In this document: piece by piece, positions 1 through 33,985 of the stretch
Position numbering within the stretch: the first letter of the stretch is position 1
How the letters are laid out: the number at the start of each line of letters is the position of its first letter
IMG/VR virus record: IMGVR_UViG_3300012157_000001
Location: 32,001-96,000 of that record
Direction: 5' to 3' (one strand)
DNA from: a virus
Lineage: Duplodnaviria > Caudoviricetes
Length of the DNA: 64,000 nt
Notes under the pieces: generated by a model
What the model was told of the DNA's origin: nothing
The model's input: only the letters and a program-made list of their open reading frames with translations
Database searches by the model: none
Translations under genes and position numbers: made by a program

Positions 1-6
1 CCAGCA

Positions 7-770
7 GAGCCTGCGGAGCGGCGTGGTAGCTCCGAGTGGTGCGTCAGCACCGTCTTCGCACGGAACCCGTACCCAGCAGAGCCGGCGGAGCGGCGTTGAT
101 GCTTCGACCTTCGATCCAATCCATTGTGTTAGAGCGCGCCCTGCGCGGTTTCGGATATACTGGCGCCATGGCTCAGAAGCGAAAAAAGAGCGGTCTGCCC
201 AGCTGGTTTCCGTTCGCACTCGGTGCATCTGCGGTGCTCATTCTGTTCGCGGGTGCTCGATCGGGCTGGAGGACGAGCGCAACCCAGGGGACGCCGCTCC
301 GTGGCTGGCCAGGTCGACGAATTGCATGAGAGCCTGCGGAGCGGGCGTTGTGCCTCCGACTAGTGCGCGTAGTGCATTTGAGCCAGCGGCGTGGCCTGGT
401 GACGTCGAGCGGTAGTAGTCGGCGTTGGTCAAGCCCGCGGAGGGGCGTTCGCTACTCCGACATCAGTCATCCCAAGGCTAGAGCCGGCGGAGCGGCAAAA
501 AAACTCCGAGACGTCGAGCATTACCGATTGGTGCCCGCAGCAAGAGCCAGCGGAGCGGCGTCACTGTCTCCGACAGGTTGCACCATCGTCTTTTAGCTCA
601 CGGAGAGGCGCTGCCATCTCCGACCACCAGATGAGCGTCGCGGAGCCCGCGGAGGGGCGTTGTGCCTCCGGCGCCATGCCTGAGGCCACCTCCGACAGCC
701 ACATCGTTCGAGCCCGCGGAGGGGCGTTGTGCCTCCGAGAGCCTCTGCTGCGACGTGCCCGCGGAGGCGC
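7..770. repeat. Degenerate repeat-spacer array: ~29-30 nt repeats (GAGCCNGCGGAGNGGCG-N6-7-CTCCGA) with mostly ~20 nt unique spacers; CRISPR-like, no cas genes in the window
   Basis: Copies at 7-35, 79-107, 330-359, 380-408, 431-460, 481-509, 544-573, 594-623, 643-671 and 710-738, with a partial copy from 755. May continue upstream of the window. Confidence 0.85.
168..329 (+). CDS. Small membrane protein (53 aa) lying inside the repeat array
   Basis: MAQKRKKSGLPSWFPFALGASAVLILFAG: basic N-terminus plus a hydrophobic helix. TATACT lies 6 nt before the ATG. Confidence 0.55.
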   Translation: MAQKRKKSGLPSWFPFALGASAVLILFAGARSGWRTSATQGTPLRGWPGRRIA

Positions 771-811
771 CATTGACCCGCGTGTGCCACCGATGCTATC
801 ACTGGCGGCAC

Positions 812-1405
812 ATGGCAGACGACGATAAACCGGCCAAGCCGGCGGAGCCGTCTCCTCGCATCGAGGCGCCGATGATCTTCGTGCGCGGCGGAACCACGAC
901 GGCGAAGCACGATGTGCTTATGGCGAAGCAACGCGCGGATACCGAGCAACGTCGCGCCATTCAGGACCGGCAGTATCAGATCACGCGCGAGGACCCGATG
1001 GCCGCGCGCATGCATTCTATGAAACTTGCGGGCGCCGACTCGCCGAAGATCGTCGTCGCGGTCAAGCATCCGAAGGAGCTGGACTTCAAGGAATGGGTCA
1101 TCTGTGACCTGCTCGACCAGGGCACGGAGAAGGTTCTGAACATGCGGTGCCCTCAGTGCGCCGCAAAGAACCCGGGCCACGAGCCCGACTTCATGATCAA
1201 GCAGTCGAACCGGCGGTGGCACTTCGACCCGCGGCCGCCGAGGTGGATGCGCGACCTCGGGACCGACCGGATCTGGGTCAACCCGGCGGACGGCAGCACG
1301 GTCGTGGTGGCGGGCAGCGTGACGACCGACGACTGGATCCGGTGTCCGGGCCTCGGGTGCGCCTGGCACTTCAAGATCGACGACTCGGTGGCGTACCCCA
1401 AATGA
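812..1405 (+). CDS. Hypothetical Zn-binding protein
   Basis: CPQC and CPGLGC motifs. Start placed at ATG 812, after a TTGACC-18-TATCAC promoter; the ORF-track extension to 662 runs through the repeats. Confidence 0.65.
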   Translation: MADDDKPAKPAEPSPRIEAPMIFVRGGTTTAKHDVLMAKQRADTEQRRAIQDRQYQITREDPMAARMHSMKLAGADSPKIVVAVKHPKELDFKEWVICDLLDQGTEKVLNMRCPQCAAKNPGHEPDFMIKQSNRRWHFDPRPPRWMRDLGTDRIWVNPADGSTVVVAGSVTTDDWIRCPGLGCAWHFKIDDSVAYPK

Positions 1406-1842
1406 GCGATGATACCCTTCAGAGCGGTGCGGACGTTGTCACCTCGGCGTCCGCGCCGGCACGGCTGTCGGCTACACCCGGCGGCCGTGCGCTTTCTGAG
1501 GAGCCCGAGCTCACAGCAGTGGATGCGGCGGAGCTCCGTGCTGCCGAGCTCGCCATCGCAGGAGAGAAGGATCGCCCGCTCACACTCGAATTCGGGAAGC
1601 GGCTCGACCGGTTCATTGCGGACGCCCTCATCGAGCACACGAAGGACCATCCGCTCGCCGACCCGTTCCAGGTCATGGAGACGCTGCTCAGGATCTCCGC
1701 CGGCATCGCGATCGTGCGTGACCGCGACGCAATCTGGTTTCAGAGCTACGCCCGCGGCATCTACGACGAGGAACGGCAGGCGCGTCCGGAGGGCAAGGCG
1801 CCCGTGGTGCCGGTCGCGATCACTGGGCGGGAGGACCGTTAG
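1402..1842 (+). CDS. Hypothetical protein
   Basis: ATGA overlap with the upstream stop codon. Confidence 0.6.
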   Translation: MSDDTLQSGADVVTSASAPARLSATPGGRALSEEPELTAVDAAELRAAELAIAGEKDRPLTLEFGKRLDRFIADALIEHTKDHPLADPFQVMETLLRISAGIAIVRDRDAIWFQSYARGIYDEERQARPEGKAPVVPVAITGREDR

Positions 1843-1845
1843 CCC

Positions 1846-2334
1846 ATGGGAGTCTGGGGCACGGGGCCTTTCGACAACGATGACTCAGCCGACATGATTG
1901 CCGGCCTAGCACGGAAGGTCCATCGAGTTCTCGAACGGAACGATAGTGACGACTACGGGGAGGCCCGCGCCGCGGCGGCGTTCGTCCTATTGGCGCACGG
2001 GACAGACGTGCTAGGCGGTCCCGGTCTCGATGTGGTGCTGAAGGCGCTCGTCAAGATGCGGGAGAACAACGAGTGGCTGGCCGGGTATCGCCAGCCGCAG
2101 CAAATCGCAGCTGCGCTCAACAAAGAGATCGGCGCCGTTATTGCGAGGATGCGAGCCTGCAAAGGCTGCCGGCGGGGGCGCGATGAAGCCGAGTGGAAAG
2201 AGATAGAAACGCTGGCGCGAAAAGCACGACGGGCGCCGGTGCCGGCTACCACTTGGCGAACAGGTCGTCGAAAGGCGCGAGTGAGCAAGGCGCGCCGCCG
2301 AAGGATCCCTCGAATAAAGGAGCGCCGATCGTGA
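1846..2334 (+). CDS. DUF4259-like protein
   Basis: N-terminal MGxWGxGPFDNDxxAD signature. Confidence 0.7.
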   Translation: MGVWGTGPFDNDDSADMIAGLARKVHRVLERNDSDDYGEARAAAAFVLLAHGTDVLGGPGLDVVLKALVKMRENNEWLAGYRQPQQIAAALNKEIGAVIARMRACKGCRRGRDEAEWKEIETLARKARRAPVPATTWRTGRRKARVSKARRRRIPRIKERRS

Positions 2335-2960
2335 AGCTCGACTTCGACGCTCTCACGCCTGCGCAGCAGCGCGCCGCGGGCAATGTTGCGATCAATCAAG
2401 ATCTCGGAGAGAACCCGCGAGTACTCGCCGCGCTGGAAGATCTCGGCGTGCTGACCTCGTACGAGGAGAACCAGGGCGGACATCCGCCGCTCATGGTGAA
2501 GCGTTACGCGATGCCGGTGAGCGTGCACATGGCGTGGTGCGAGTGGTGCTCACGGACGCCGAAAGAAGAGGCGTTGCCGTGAGTGAGCTGAAGAAAGAGT
2601 GGCTCGCGTACCTATCGCTCGTCGGGCTCAGTGTCCTAGCTGGAGTCATCGGCGGCTACTCCATCGGCCACAACAGCGCCGAACACGACATCGCTGGTCG
2701 GTTCTACCACCGCTGCCGCGAGAACCTTGGTCTGTTTGAGCCGATGACGACGCTCCAGAAGGGCGAATCGGCGTGCGCGCATCTCATCACCGAAGAGCTC
2801 GGAATCGAGAACCGATGGGCCAAGGAACTGCCCTAAGATGGCACGCGACGTCGAAGTCCGTCGTAACGGCCAGGTCGTCGGCCACGCAAGGGTCTGCAGC
2901 CAGGACGACATTGTTCCACCGCGTGGGCTCCCCGCGCCTCGCGAGGACTACGAAGAGAAA

Positions 2961-3644
2961 GTGAGCACCAGCATGGACAAGGACAAGCACAAGGCTGCGC
3001 TCGATGCGCTCGCGGAGCTGATCCGGGGGGAGTTGGCAGGTGAGGACCGCGCACGCTTTTCGCGCGTGTGTCGGCTCGCCCTGATCGGTCAGAAACTCAT
3101 GGTGGAACTGAACCCTCGCGCGGAGGACGTGGACGAGGAAATCGAGGGCGACGAGTTCCACCAGCTCGGTGGGGTCTATCCGGCGCGGCGCCGCCGCCAC
3201 GGCGAGCTCATACTCGGCGCCGGCAACGACCAACAGCAAATGGTTCGAGAAACGTTGGCCATGCTGGGCCCCGCAATGGGCGGCCTGCAGCAGCAGAACG
3301 ATGCTCGGCGGCGCGAGTCGATGGCTCGCGAGTTGAACCAACTCATCGACGCTCGCGAAGTGCTGAAGGAACAGGACCAGGCTGCAGCCGGCATGCTCAC
3401 GAAGCGGATCGATGCAATCCTCGCGGCGATGGGCGAAGAAGAAAAACCGAAAGGAGACGAAGATGGACTTTCAGTGGTTCCTGCCGTCGATGTACGGCGA
3501 CATCAAGCTGAACCGAGTCTCGGCAGACTCAACGAGGATGACCCTCAATGGTCTCTCGCCGACGGAGAAGGAGGCGGTGCAGGCGCTCTTCGAGCGGGCG
3601 ACGAACCCGGGCGCGCTCCGCAAGTCGTGGGCCACGGCGGATAA
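2961..3644 (+). CDS. Hypothetical helical protein; 3' end overlaps the next gene by ~180 nt
   Basis: Protein-like coiled-coil sequence. Start uncertain (2838 or 2961). Confidence 0.55.
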   Translation: MSTSMDKDKHKAALDALAELIRGELAGEDRARFSRVCRLALIGQKLMVELNPRAEDVDEEIEGDEFHQLGGVYPARRRRHGELILGAGNDQQQMVRETLAMLGPAMGGLQQQNDARRRESMARELNQLIDAREVLKEQDQAAAGMLTKRIDAILAAMGEEEKPKGDEDGLSVVPAVDVRRHQAEPSLGRLNEDDPQWSLADGEGGGAGALRAGDEPGRAPQVVGHGG

Positions 3645-7758: not shown

Positions 7759-9060
7759 ATGAGCAGTCCTGACCAAAAGCTCGTTGCGGAGAACTACTGG
7801 GCGCCAGGCATGGCTGCCGTGAACGACTACGGCGTGATGTACCAGGCCGAGTGGGAAACGCTGTGGGACGGAACCGCCGTTGCCGCGCGTCTCCACGCTC
7901 GTGCGCTCGCGGCGCAAGGTATCCCCGTGCTGCTGAAGTCCTTCTCGGGCATCGTCGTGAACGCGGAGGGCGTGCCAGAACCGGTGTTCGCGGCGGGCCT
8001 TCCAGAGGCGGTGAAGGCCGAGGTCGGCTCGCTTCCAGAAACATCGATCGGGACGCTCGCGATCCTGCTGAAGCACCTGGTTGTCCGTGGGCAAGGCGCC
8101 CTCGACGGATACCTGATGCCTCGGCACGTGGCGCACTCGGACGTTACGGCGCTGCTGGCGCTTCGGAAGGCAGTCTACGACTCAACGATCACGTACACCG
8201 TGTGGGAGCGGGATCGCGTCGCGCCCGGGATCGCTCAGCTGCTCGGACGGTGCGGGCAAGCGTGGGTGCCGTGCAGCCAGAATGCCTCGGCGCTGATCCG
8301 GTCTGGCGTGCCGGCGGAGAAGGTACGGGTCGTGCCGCATCCGTACGAGCCGACCGACTCGATGTGTCGACTCACCGAGCGTAAGCCCATGACCGGCAAG
8401 CGGTTCTATTCGATCGGGCGCTGGGAGCCGAGGAAAGGACTCCACGAGCTCATCGGCGGATTCATGCTCGCGTTCCGACCGGGCGATGATGTGACGCTGA
8501 CGATCAAGACGAGCCCCGGGACGTGGAAGGGATACCCGAATCCAGAAGAGAGCGTCTCCTGGTGGCTCAAGCGGTTCGACTACTGGAGCGAGAAGACGCT
8601 CCACCCGCACCTTGTTGTCGATCATCGGCGGTACCCGAGGAGCCGCATTCTGAAGCTTCACTTCGACAACAACATTTACGTGTCGGCGTCACACGGGGAG
8701 GCATGGAACCTGCCGGCGTTCGAGGCGAAACTTGCCGGTAACCGGCTCGTGCACGTCCCGTTCGGCGGCACGGCGGATTTCTGCGTGGCCGATGATGTGC
8801 CGGTCGCATACGTGATGGAGCCGGTGGCTGGGATCTACGGCTGGGAGCCGGACGCCGAGTGGGCGAGCGTGACGATCGACGAGATAGCCGCGGCGCTTCG
8901 CATGGCGAAAGCGCCAGAGGCTTACGTGCGACCGGAGCACTACGAGCGCACATTCAGCTTCGATGCAGTCGGTGAGAGGATGGCGAACCTCGTACTCGCG
9001 CAGCTCGACGATGTGGATCCGAAGGCCGGAGCCTGGATTCGGGAGCGCAGGCGCAGATGA
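7759..9060 (+). CDS. Glycosyltransferase, GT-B fold (GT4-like)
   Basis: FYSIGRWEPRKG and YVSASHGEAWNLPAFEA (E-x7-E) motifs. Confidence 0.85.
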   Translation: MSSPDQKLVAENYWAPGMAAVNDYGVMYQAEWETLWDGTAVAARLHARALAAQGIPVLLKSFSGIVVNAEGVPEPVFAAGLPEAVKAEVGSLPETSIGTLAILLKHLVVRGQGALDGYLMPRHVAHSDVTALLALRKAVYDSTITYTVWERDRVAPGIAQLLGRCGQAWVPCSQNASALIRSGVPAEKVRVVPHPYEPTDSMCRLTERKPMTGKRFYSIGRWEPRKGLHELIGGFMLAFRPGDDVTLTIKTSPGTWKGYPNPEESVSWWLKRFDYWSEKTLHPHLVVDHRRYPRSRILKLHFDNNIYVSASHGEAWNLPAFEAKLAGNRLVHVPFGGTADFCVADDVPVAYVMEPVAGIYGWEPDAEWASVTIDEIAAALRMAKAPEAYVRPEHYERTFSFDAVGERMANLVLAQLDDVDPKAGAWIRERRRR

Positions 9061-31157: not shown

Positions 31158-31910
31158 GCAAGCCGTCGTCACCAACTGTCCCCGCCGAGCAGCTCCCCCG
31201 CGCCGACGTCGCGTACCTGCTTCTGATCGCGAGGAGCGGTCCGTTCGTTGTGCTGCGCGTGCCGGCGGAGTGTGAGGTCACCGTGGGTCGCAGAGGCCGT
31301 GAGAGCCACGGCGGCCGGTATCTGCCGAAGTGGCCCGAGATCGTCAGCGGCGCCAAGGCGATCCTCGCGGAGCACGGGCTCCCTCCGGAGGACTTTCTGA
31401 TGCTCGATCGCATCGTAGAGCCGTGGGACTGGGCCACACCGTGGGGCGGCAAGCTCCTGATGGCCGACCTGCGGTTACGTGCGCTGAAGGCCGACGCGGC
31501 GTTCGACGGGCATCCAGAGGTGTATCGAAAGCACTACCTCTACGACTGGGTCGGCAAGGCGTTCACGCGCGTGCGGGGCCCGCTGGAAGAGCAGCAACCG
31601 GAAGCCGTCGAACCGAAAGGAACGACATGAGCCCGGAATGCTGGAAACGCCGCCTAGCAAAACTTGGGCTCGCGCTCACCGTCTACGATAGAAGCCACAT
31701 GCTTGGAGACGTGACGCAGGAATGGACCGTGTTCGTCGAACCGATAGATCGTTCTCGTAGCGACCCTCGGTTCCGACCCCTGATTGGGATTGCGATCCAT
31801 CAAAGTCGTGATGAAGCGATCCGGATCGCGGTCTCGGACTTCGAGTTCGCCGAGGCCGATCAGCTGCGCGAAAAGGTCGCGTTGGCGCTGGCCGGAGAGC
31901 AGAGGGCGTA

Positions 31911-32315
31911 GTGAACACGGGAATCGTCGCGGAAGAGCTGCGTGCTACCGCGGCGCTGCAGGGCGATGCTGCCATGGCGCTTGGACAAAGCATTCGAGAG
32001 GCAGCCCGGTCCTACGGTTCAATCGAGCAAGCCCACCAGAGACTGGTAGCGCTCATTGCGGAAGAGAGCGGCAGCGAGCTGCGCGAGTTGGTCGAGTACC
32101 TGGGATTCGTCCGCGAAATGCTCGCCGAGCTTTCAGTGGCACTCGTTGAGTTGCACCCCGATAAGGCGCAGTTTCTTCAGATAATCGAGCCACTGGCTTC
32201 GGTGGCTCGCGACGGCATGCGGAACAGGCACCTGGCGGACTGGGAGACTCAGACGTTTCGCACGATCGTCGTCAAGGCTCTCGCGGGCGAGACGCCGGAA
32301 CCGAAGGAAGGATGA
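31911..32315 (+). CDS. Helical protein, paralog of 30741-31157
   Basis: Same shared motif as 30741-31157. Confidence 0.7.
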   Translation: MNTGIVAEELRATAALQGDAAMALGQSIREAARSYGSIEQAHQRLVALIAEESGSELRELVEYLGFVREMLAELSVALVELHPDKAQFLQIIEPLASVARDGMRNRHLADWETQTFRTIVVKALAGETPEPKEG

Positions 32316-32553
32316 GCGATGGAACGAAGGCAGTGCCCATGGTGTACGGACGGAGAGATCCTGCGAGACGACGAGCGCAAGGCAACCGGTCACTCCGATC
32401 CGGTCTGCAACGGCTTCATGGACATGCTCAGGGAGTCGAGCGGTTTCGCTCGGATGACAATCGACCTCGTCGACGACGACAACAACGTCGTGGAGAGCTT
32501 CCCTACCACTACCGGTCCGCGCGTGGTCGTACCGGAGAAAGACGGGTAGCCCG

Positions 32554-32781
32554 ATGCGCGTCAAATTCGACGCTGGTGGCGAGATGACGGCGCGCGACGT
32601 GTTCGCGATCTCGCTCCTGCTGAAGGAGCGCAAGCTGGAGGACGGACAGGAGGCTACCCGGCTTGACCTCGCTCGGCTGCTGGAGTGCACGCATGAGGGG
32701 GGCGATCAAATGAAGTTCCATGCTGGCGCGGAGATGACGGTACGCGACGTACTGGCTATCCAGCGGCTGCTGGAGGAATAG
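32554..32781 (+). CDS. Small protein with an internal duplication
   Basis: KFDAGGEMTARDVFAI..LL.E versus KFHAGAEMTVRDVLAI..LLEE. Confidence 0.6.
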   Translation: MRVKFDAGGEMTARDVFAISLLLKERKLEDGQEATRLDLARLLECTHEGGDQMKFHAGAEMTVRDVLAIQRLLEE

Positions 32782-33985
32782 GAAAGGAACGAAAGTTTTG
32801 CGCAACGAGATTCATGTGGATGTGGACGACTGGTCGGTGTTCCGATTGGCACAGCTTCGAGAGCAACGTGAGCCAGCTGGGCTGCGCATCGTCATCGACG
32901 AAGACAGGCGCGTCACTGATCTCTACATCGTGCGCGCTGACGGTACGATCGAGCGCCAGCCAGAAAGGTAAACGGCGGATGGACCCTCGCAAGTTCGCCC
33001 GTCCACGTACTCCGCACATGCGATCGTGGCGACTGCATGTTGCTCTCATGGCGGACCGCATCGAGCGTCGAATCGGTGAACGGCTCACGGACGACGAAGT
33101 AGATCGGCTCTCGCTCGCTGGTGACCCGCTCGTGCTCCGGGAAACGTGGTTTCATTGCGGCGGATATCTCGTGGTCGAAGACGGTCGCCTTCGTCTCTCG
33201 CGGGAGCTGCGTCGCCGAGAGCCGGCACACCACAGCGTACTTCGCCGGGACGCAAATGAGCCATTTCCCCGCCCCGCGCGGCGCCGCCGTTGACAGCACT
33301 GCTGTCGCCTGATAGGAGGAACAGATATATGGTCACGCCAACATCGCAGATGAACCTCGACTGGGAGAACGCTCGGGAGGGCGCCAAGGCTCGGGACCGG
33401 GCGATAGACCAGGTGGAGCGCGGCACCGGCGAGTGGCAGGTCGAGGCGCTCAATGCAATCCGAAGCGTTGCGGCGTCCAAGCCGGAGCTGACCACCGACG
33501 ACGTGTGGCGCGCGCTCGGACGCGACCCCGAAGTCGAAGGGCGAGCCATGGGCGCGGCGATGCGGCACGCGGCGAAGCTCGGGCTGATCGAGCGCACGGA
33601 CCGGACGGCGCGGAGCCTGCGCGTGGCGTGTCACCGACGCGACCTGCGCGTCTGGAGGTCGAAAATCCACCGCTGAAGAGGGAGGCTGGTATGAGCGCCG
33701 AAAGGGACATGAAGTACATGGACGTGATCGATCTGCTCGCACAGACGGCGCTCGGTCGCCTGAACGCGGCCGCGAAGAAAGTTCGATCAAGGGCCGGCGA
33801 GGGTCTCCACGACGAAATGGTCAAGCTGCTGACCGAGGCCCACGCGGCCGGAAAGCGTGAGGCGCTCGAAACGGTCGATGCGGTGCGGGTGGGAGTCGTG
33901 CCGAATTTCACCGAGGAACAGATAGCGGCTCACGAGGGAATCCTGGCGATGGCTCGCCGAATCCTGCTCGGAAAGGACGAGGCTG

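Follow-up and report, generated by a model that had tools for sequence, protein, structure and literature searches.

The closest described relatives of the system analysed here are the type V-M CRISPR systems, in which the effector Cas12m works with crRNAs of 50–60 nt (PMC11013384). The Cas12m2 crRNA has a 36-nt scaffold, the first 7 nt of which are disordered, and combines a stem with a pseudoknot (positions −22 to −17 with −8 to −3); guide and target form a 17-bp duplex (PMC10442227). In GoCas12m, the RuvC triad is H322-D497-D590 (PMC11013384). Phage-borne Cas12m is already known from a preprint on phage MV-1 (bioRxiv 10.64898/2026.09.14.751636), so that a phage setting is not in itself unique.

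Here, we consider the beginning of a 64,000-nt stretch of DNA (the window) that corresponds to genome positions 32001–96000 of a virus record (IMGVR_UViG_3300012157_000001) that is 179,401 bp long, has direct terminal repeats and is derived from a freshwater sediment metagenome. We regard window positions 1–782 as, probably, the leader-distal part of a CRISPR array (array 1) of a phage-borne, adaptation-less type V-M-like system. The observations behind this reading are the anatomy of the arrays, the homology of the effector, covariation at the RNA level, spacer turnover between relatives and the absence of cas1, cas2 and cas4. Coordinates refer to the window unless given as genome positions.

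Array 1 and its repeats

Array 1 occupies genome positions 31249–32782 on the plus strand, comes after an M15-peptidase-like gene and comprises 22 units. Units 12 and 13 are the first inside the window; among units 1–13, a period of 72–75 nt prevails, and two are of a short class. An earlier note, made from the letters of the window, had described a Cas-less array of ten repeats and a partial one and proposed inspection of the upstream sequence for more repeats and an effector. The count is correct (Table 1), and the array does continue upstream for 750 nt, mostly with regular 72–75-nt periods, but the effector gene lies 113.6 kb downstream of array 1. The array is therefore Cas-less locally but not genome-wide, where a Cas12m-like gene is found beside a sister array with the same repeat. 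The note's list of spacers also overlooked a 223-nt gap at 109–331 containing a conserved 53-aa gene, which divides array 1 into sub-arrays 1a and 1b.

In a structure-aware scan, all 41 fully paired units fell within the two arrays, and the same scan of the rest of the genome on both strands returned 22 unrelated matches, which is background (13–28 in shuffled genomes). Thus, paired units exceed background only in the arrays, and the genome contains no solitary repeats. Rfam, run in E-value mode on both arrays, matched no family.

Table 1. Features of the leader-distal part of array 1 and its 3' flank (window coordinates)
Feature	Position	Strand	Description
Repeat unit 12 of array 1	1–36	+	5' tag 1–8, pseudoknot core 9–36; long-class
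Long-class spacer	37–72	+	36 nt
Repeat unit 13	73–108	+	core 81–108; G·U pair in S2 (3' arm CTTCG); ends sub-array 1a
Nested 53-aa gene	168–329	+	basic N-terminus and one hydrophobic helix
Repeat unit 14	324–360	+	core 332–360, S1 3' arm with one extra G; 21-nt spacer 361–381
Repeat unit 15	374–409	+	core 382–409; fourth S1 pair A-U; S2 is CGGCG/CGUCG, fully paired; spacer 410–432
Repeat unit 16	425–461	+	core 433–461; spacer 462–482; unit and spacer missing en bloc from relative L026
Repeat unit 17	475–510	+	core 483–510; loop 3 is seven A; 22-nt spacer from 511
Repeat unit 18	538–574	+	core 546–574; spacer 575–595
Repeat unit 19	588–624	+	core 596–624; most diverged 5' half, both stems retained; spacer 625–644
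Repeat unit 20	637–672	+	core 645–672; 39-nt interval 673–711
Repeat unit 21	704–739	+	core 712–739; last complete unit; 17-nt interval 740–756
5' half repeat	757–770	+	fused to promoter region of next gene; S2 unpaired
Promoter-like element, TTGACC-N17/18-TGCTATCA(C/G)T	776–806	+	outside array; conserved in L026 and array-less L030
First gene past array 1	812–1405	+	197 aa, no family; marks array 3' boundary

The repeat core consists, in order, of S1-5' (GCCN), one nucleotide (usually G), S2-5' (CGGAG), S1-3' (N'GGC), a loop of 7–8 nt, S2-3' (CTCCG), A, and G or C. By its sequence, each repeat is an H-type pseudoknot, with stem S1 (GCCN/N'GGC) interleaved with stem S2 (CGGAG/CTCCG). The CGGAG/CTCCG pairing had been taken for an alternative to S1; it corresponds instead to the second stem of the pseudoknot, which forms together with the first (PMC10442227). 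The inner window between the arms, rightly described as variable, is reread as loop 3 of the pseudoknot. The covarying N/N' pairs originally listed are correct (by core start, G-C at 81 and 483, A-T at 382, and C-G at 433, 645 and 712), and the other four units mismatch; some decay is therefore real, given that the fourth S1 pair is lost in 4 of the 10 window units.

Pairs were counted in an alignment of 51 distinct units taken from the phage, from its relatives and from arrays in metagenomes. All aligned units have a 7-nt loop, a choice that leans the result slightly towards structure; units with an 8-nt loop pair in their own register. Both stems covary: changes on both sides of a pair were observed in 27 cells versus 9.2 ± 2.4 in shuffles, none of 500 of which reached 27. 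S2 is paired in 99.6% of cells, and two of its pairs vary in both partners (AU/CG/GC in one, GC/GU/UG/AU in the other). At the fourth position of S1, GC, CG, UA, AU and UG pairs all occur, and 23 of the 51 units are unpaired there. With slid 3' partners as a control, pairing amounted to only 38–59% of cells. G·U or U·G pairs are found in 8 cells at one S2 pair and in 3 cells of S1. Because these would be A·C on the other strand, the structure is one of RNA, read in the direction of the effector gene.

The topology of the repeat and its G·A closing pair match the Cas12m2 crRNA scaffold (PMC10442227); the position beside S2 tends to swap G…A for A…G, in agreement with the non-canonical G(−23)·A(−2) pair seen in the crRNA structure. 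The repeat pattern had zero exact matches among 185,579 prokaryote species, each represented by one genome (GTDB), and no match in IMG/VR, where the window's own record may be masked.

The spacers fall into two length classes. The long ones are mostly 36–39 nt after removal of the 8-nt 5' tag, with a GC content of 0.64; the short intervals are 17–24 nt, with a GC content of 0.56, and give periods of 45–53 nt, close to the sum of the 29 ordered scaffold nucleotides and a 17–20-nt guide (PMC10442227, PMC11013384). The repeats of the tail are heterogeneous and no longer carry the conserved 8-nt 5' tag. The ~50-nt units of the tail are probably compact crRNA cassettes, still usable and not junk, though some decay is evident. 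The spacer of unit 17 is followed by the remnant of a unit that is intact in the close relative L026. After unit 20, the interval 673–711 contains …CCTCCGAC with GCCT..GGCC before it; it resembles the relic of a unit minus the S2 5' arm, and the true spacer there may be only ~15 nt long.

Protospacer searches covered only part of sequence space and returned chance-level matches at most. A search of the phage GenBank collection with window positions 1–3000 and both arrays gave one 38-nt chance match (E 0.5), and the spacers had only chance matches of 14–17 nt to the phage's own genome. Comparison of both arrays with two related viral records likewise remained at chance level, and exact 22-nt scans of three spacers in IMG/VR gave no match.

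The nested 53-aa gene differs from its counterpart in L026 by 12 synonymous and 3 nonsynonymous codons, which indicates purifying selection, and its region is 90–99% conserved in metagenome contigs of relatives. It may be co-transcribed with the short units. The promoter-like element past the half repeat probably starts a long block of small plus-strand genes. In L030, a relative with a downstream gene 79% identical to that of the phage, other genes occupy the position of array 1 (L030:1555–4001), including a 321-aa minus-strand ORF. Since TTGACC-N17/18-TGCTATCA is conserved even in this array-less relative, array 1 is an accessory, lineage-specific insertion in an intergenic region. The downstream block of relatives (L030:7656–7976 and 8271–8594, and L031) encodes an Acb2/Tad1-hairpin-like protein and a GT4-conflict glycosyltransferase; a counter-defence role of these genes near the array position is possible.

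At the leader side, all eight array leaders compared share, without variation, an 8-nt motif, CGCTCGCA (mostly ACCGCTCGCAAA) (L009:2855–2925, minus strand; L010:2725–2740, plus strand; and relatives L011, L012, L013, L018, L022 and L023). It lies ~55–60 nt ahead of the first repeat beside the effector and only ~13 nt ahead of array 1. We considered that the motif might be a general phage promoter and rejected this, its intergenic occurrences being found only at arrays. Scans of both arrays for sigma-70 promoters and terminators gave nothing above shuffles.

Array dynamics among related phages

The same design is found in other phages: in L012, L013, L022/L024 and L025 (the last with an effector of 26% identity), the effector gene is followed by a co-oriented array with a period of ~73 nt and the same pseudoknot. 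Related phages keep the repeats and carry different spacers near the leader, and whole units are gained or lost in the tail; in one relative, 234 nt stand in place of the 1502-nt array. In contigs of four soil metagenomes, the same repeats are joined by other spacers, both long (32–40 nt) and short (18–23 nt). The earlier note had named spacers invariant across related phages, with no targets, as a finding that would count against a guide array; relatives carry other spacers between the same repeats, and the arrays possess the unique spacers, differing between kin and with polarity, that characterize a CRISPR array. In close relatives, contigs assembled from short reads terminate within the first identical repeat that follows the effector gene.

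The complete 152.9-kb phage G002, the record of L025 and its distant, 26%-identity Cas12m-like gene, has at least 10 scattered arrays or mini-arrays on both strands, for example at 36.8–40.1, 72.7, 80.0, 91.5, 96.0 and 103.8–107.2 kb.

The most serious alternative is that the part of array 1 in the window is a decaying, non-functional trailer, made of old units with no usable guides, and that only the regular upstream units work. Degeneration at the trailer end is usual in CRISPR arrays, and the tail fits this pattern: the 5' tag is lost, the spacing is irregular (17–39 nt), loop 3 has diverged, and there is a half repeat along with remnants of units. However, both stems are paired in every complete unit of the tail, by way of compensatory or wobble changes. 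The comparison with L026, whose downstream gene is 96% identical, provides examples: in addition to unit 15 itself, with its altered S2, the orthologue of this unit in L026 has CGCCG, and an extra unit of L026 has CAGAG/TTCTG. In the L026 orthologue of unit 17, an S1 pair is U·G instead of G-C. The tail spacers common to the two phages are nearly identical while loop 3 differs, and whole ~50-nt units have been inserted or deleted between them. The tail of the array is 90–99% conserved in contigs of relatives. Moreover, the sister array ends in the same block of short units, relatives carry different spacers of 18–23 nt, and the length of the short units clusters tightly at the minimal crRNA size. 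On these patterns of substitution, the tail units are under selection, and we consider a dead trailer unlikely compared with a leader-distal segment that still supplies guides.

The Cas12m-like effector and the sister array

The single effector gene of the genome lies at genome positions 146424–148505 on the minus strand and encodes 693 aa from a GTG codon, or ~669 aa from the Met used by relatives. Pfam and NCBIfam searches with the protein gave nothing meaningful; phmmer against the PDB matched Cas12m 23vw_A (E 2e-8). A family profile built from 25 homologues of 39–94% identity matched Cas12m 23vw (7.7e-35), UnCas12m4a (5.8e-17) and Cas12m2 8hhl (6.6e-11). An alignment-based AF2 model had a pLDDT of 76 (a single-sequence model, with a pLDDT of 39, was unusable), and its top Foldseek matches were Cas12m2 8hhl_A (3.6e-15) and GoCas12m 8pm4_A (1.5e-14), followed only by other Cas12 and TnpB structures; VIA-align yielded Z scores of 17.2 (496 residues) and 16.8 (476 residues). 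The sequence profile, the predicted fold and the structural alignment all identify the effector as a relative of Cas12m (type V-M).

The active-site regions are not conserved. The RuvC-I column is occupied by R in this effector and by D, H, N, S, A or E in its relatives, and the RuvC-II position of the clade is G or A. The structural alignment stops at residues 541–566 of Cas12m chains of 592–604 residues; GoCas12m, in particular, is aligned over residues 1–566 of 604 only, so that D590 and the zinc finger are outside. The effector ends ~40 disordered residues past the last aligned helix and has no CxxC pairs; it thus lacks the combination of RuvC triad and zinc finger.

An exhaustive profile search retrieved 2,885 cluster representatives at E ≤ 1e-3 and 449 at E ≤ 1e-30. 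All of the nearest 47 representatives are without a zinc finger, and more distant ones keep the CxxC pairs and a WDQD.NAA motif. As the zinc finger is absent in the nearest relatives and kept in distant ones, the effector belongs to a derived, C-terminally truncated clade. Peptide patterns of the effector family found no relatives in GTDB genomes, one for each of 185,579 prokaryote species. In a set of C-termini (P0001–P0100), a disordered tail that contains G.AR and closes with the tripeptide A-A-E is common to most clade members and to some relatives with a zinc finger, and this tail may be a conserved C-terminal tag.

Array 2 begins 71 nt downstream of the effector gene, runs from genome position 146343 to 144939 on the minus strand, and is inverted relative to array 1. 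It has 22 units of the same repeat family and the same layout, with 15 regular units followed by mostly short ones. The two arrays, 112 kb apart, share one effector gene. According to a gene map based on GC3, the genome is organized into two transcription arms, which start back to back near 156 kb and run towards each other to meet near 105.5 kb, and each array is inside one arm, co-oriented with that arm's genes. No Cas1, Cas2 or Cas4 was found in the complete 179-kb genome; the absence of cas1 and cas2 is usual for V-M / V-U1 and viral systems.

Outside the window, genes for RecT, an IstB-like loader and a DnaB helicase are located at the divergence point of the arms (genome 156976–161898), and an SNF2 helicase with DUF6011 is encoded just downstream of array 2 (genome 142010–144667). 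Among the large proteins tested with Pfam, there was no terminase, portal or capsid.

With an effector in hand, the units could also be viewed as effector-binding handles without a guide role, either a sponge or decoy (akin to the RNA anti-CRISPR decoy proposed in the note) for a host Cas12m, or cis elements that let the phage Cas12m-like protein handle phage transcripts. The scaffolds are the most strictly conserved part of the tail, the units sit between a small gene and the next promoter, and G002 scatters mini-arrays throughout its genome, all of which would suit such a role. Against it, every repeat of this genome lies in one of the two arrays, and the intervals between scaffolds in the tail are conserved between kin and guide-sized. 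A decoy in particular finds no support: the phage encodes the cognate effector itself, and a search of the 185,579 species representatives brought no host repeat, and hence no candidate host system to be decoyed, into view. We judge handles devoid of guides to be very unlikely.

It is most improbable that the repeats act as DNA, be it as ssDNA hairpins or protein-binding sites (both also entertained in the note), as iterons or as a family of REP type. In its favour, a cluster of imperfect repeats at a module boundary is in principle able to bind a protein. Against it, the G·U and U·G pairs would turn into A·C mismatches if read from the opposite strand or as duplex DNA, and work only as RNA of the plus strand; the interleaved stems cannot form a cruciform, a Cas12m-like effector adjoins the sister array and the arrays of kin, spacers turn over between kin, and the pattern is absent from single genomes of the 185,579 cellular species and from the rest of the phage genome.

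Proposed function and comparison with known systems

Of the functions originally proposed, a processed guide array of a programmable system is thus the one supported by sequence covariation, effector homology and spacer turnover. By analogy with characterised Cas12m, transcription, processing, DNA binding and targeting would proceed as follows. Array 1 would be transcribed rightward, along its gene arm, and every repeat would fold into a compact H-type pseudoknot scaffold. The single Cas12m-like protein, encoded beside array 2, would bind each scaffold, and the pre-crRNA would be cut upstream of each scaffold, as characterised Cas12m does without RuvC. The 17–20 nt after …CTCCGA(G/C) would then guide PAM-dependent binding of double-stranded DNA. 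Given that the effector clade is without conserved RuvC-I/RuvC-II residues and without the zinc-finger/RuvC-III segment, the expected outcome is silencing by binding and not cleavage, with rival phages, other mobile elements or host genes as presumptive targets. Several points weigh against this reading of array 1 as part of a V-M-like system: the searches described above gave no protospacer for any spacer, the tail repeats are heterogeneous and partly decayed, the array and the effector gene are 113.6 kb apart, and the effector clade has lost domains kept by every characterised Cas12m.

More tentatively, and with well under even confidence, we suggest that the ~50-nt units are natural minimal crRNA cassettes (a scaffold and a ~20-nt guide, with nothing to trim), built and reshuffled without Cas1-Cas2, for example by recombination or duplication of whole units. 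They might serve a Cas12m lineage that, minus the zinc finger and RuvC-III, has turned into a pure RNA-guided repressor. The phage would deploy it with an array in each transcription arm, and its targets would be rival phages or genes of the host.

The findings place in phages, together with arrays, a large clade of Cas12m relatives without zinc finger or RuvC-III (at least 47 clusters at 50% identity); this clade may represent a very compact RNA-guided DNA binder that naturally lacks nuclease activity. The arrays illustrate the evolution of CRISPR loci without Cas1-Cas2: repeats drift while compensatory substitutions preserve the pseudoknot, whole units are gained and lost, and a second, guide-sized class of spacers arises. 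If the short units work, they represent the natural minimum of a Cas12m crRNA, which bears on the design of multiplexed guides. What a phage would silence with ~40 guides becomes a testable question.

Among virus-encoded systems, CRISPR-CasΦ (Cas12j) of huge phages, as well as the mini-arrays and solitary units of viruses, are adaptation-less and thought to act against competitors, and the present system shares with them the virus-encoded, adaptation-less character. Cas12j, however, cuts DNA with an active RuvC and belongs to another branch of Cas12 (Foldseek match of the effector model to Cas12j, E 0.044). Viral mini-arrays usually borrow a host effector, whereas this phage brings its own.

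The closest similarity is to type V-M, as represented by MmCas12m2, GoCas12m and MsCas12m (8hhl, 8pm4, 23vw; PMC10442227, PMC11013384). Shared with these are the fold and sequence family of the effector, the 36-nt repeat with a pseudoknot scaffold in its 3' ~29 nt and a G·A closing pair beside the spacer, the order of effector gene and co-oriented array, and the lack of adaptation genes; by analogy, DNA binding without cleavage would be shared as well. In contrast to type V-M, no RuvC-I or RuvC-II residue is conserved here, and the zinc finger and the RuvC-III segment are missing. The system resides in a phage and has a single effector gene for two large arrays, of which array 1 is detached from the effector; repeats are heterogeneous within an array, spacers form two length classes, and a protein gene is nested in the array. 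With membership in the wider V-M family and a V-M-like mode of working, yet without the triad and zinc finger, it is best described as a variant of type V-M and not as the new programmable system that the earlier note had envisaged.

The nearest counterpart in a phage is MvCas12m of myxophage MV-1 (bioRxiv 10.64898/2026.09.14.751636), which shares with the present system a Cas12m carried by a phage, an array beside the effector, the absence of cas1/2/4 and spacers for which searches gave no targets. By its description, MvCas12m (610 aa) is set apart by an intact D-E-D triad and one array of 8 spacers, whereas here the triad and the C-terminal domains are gone and there are 2 × 22 units. Specific to the present phage are the truncated effector clade, one gene for two 22-unit arrays, one per arm, the heterogeneous repeats that keep their structure, the guide-sized second class of spacers, and the conserved 53-aa gene within the array.
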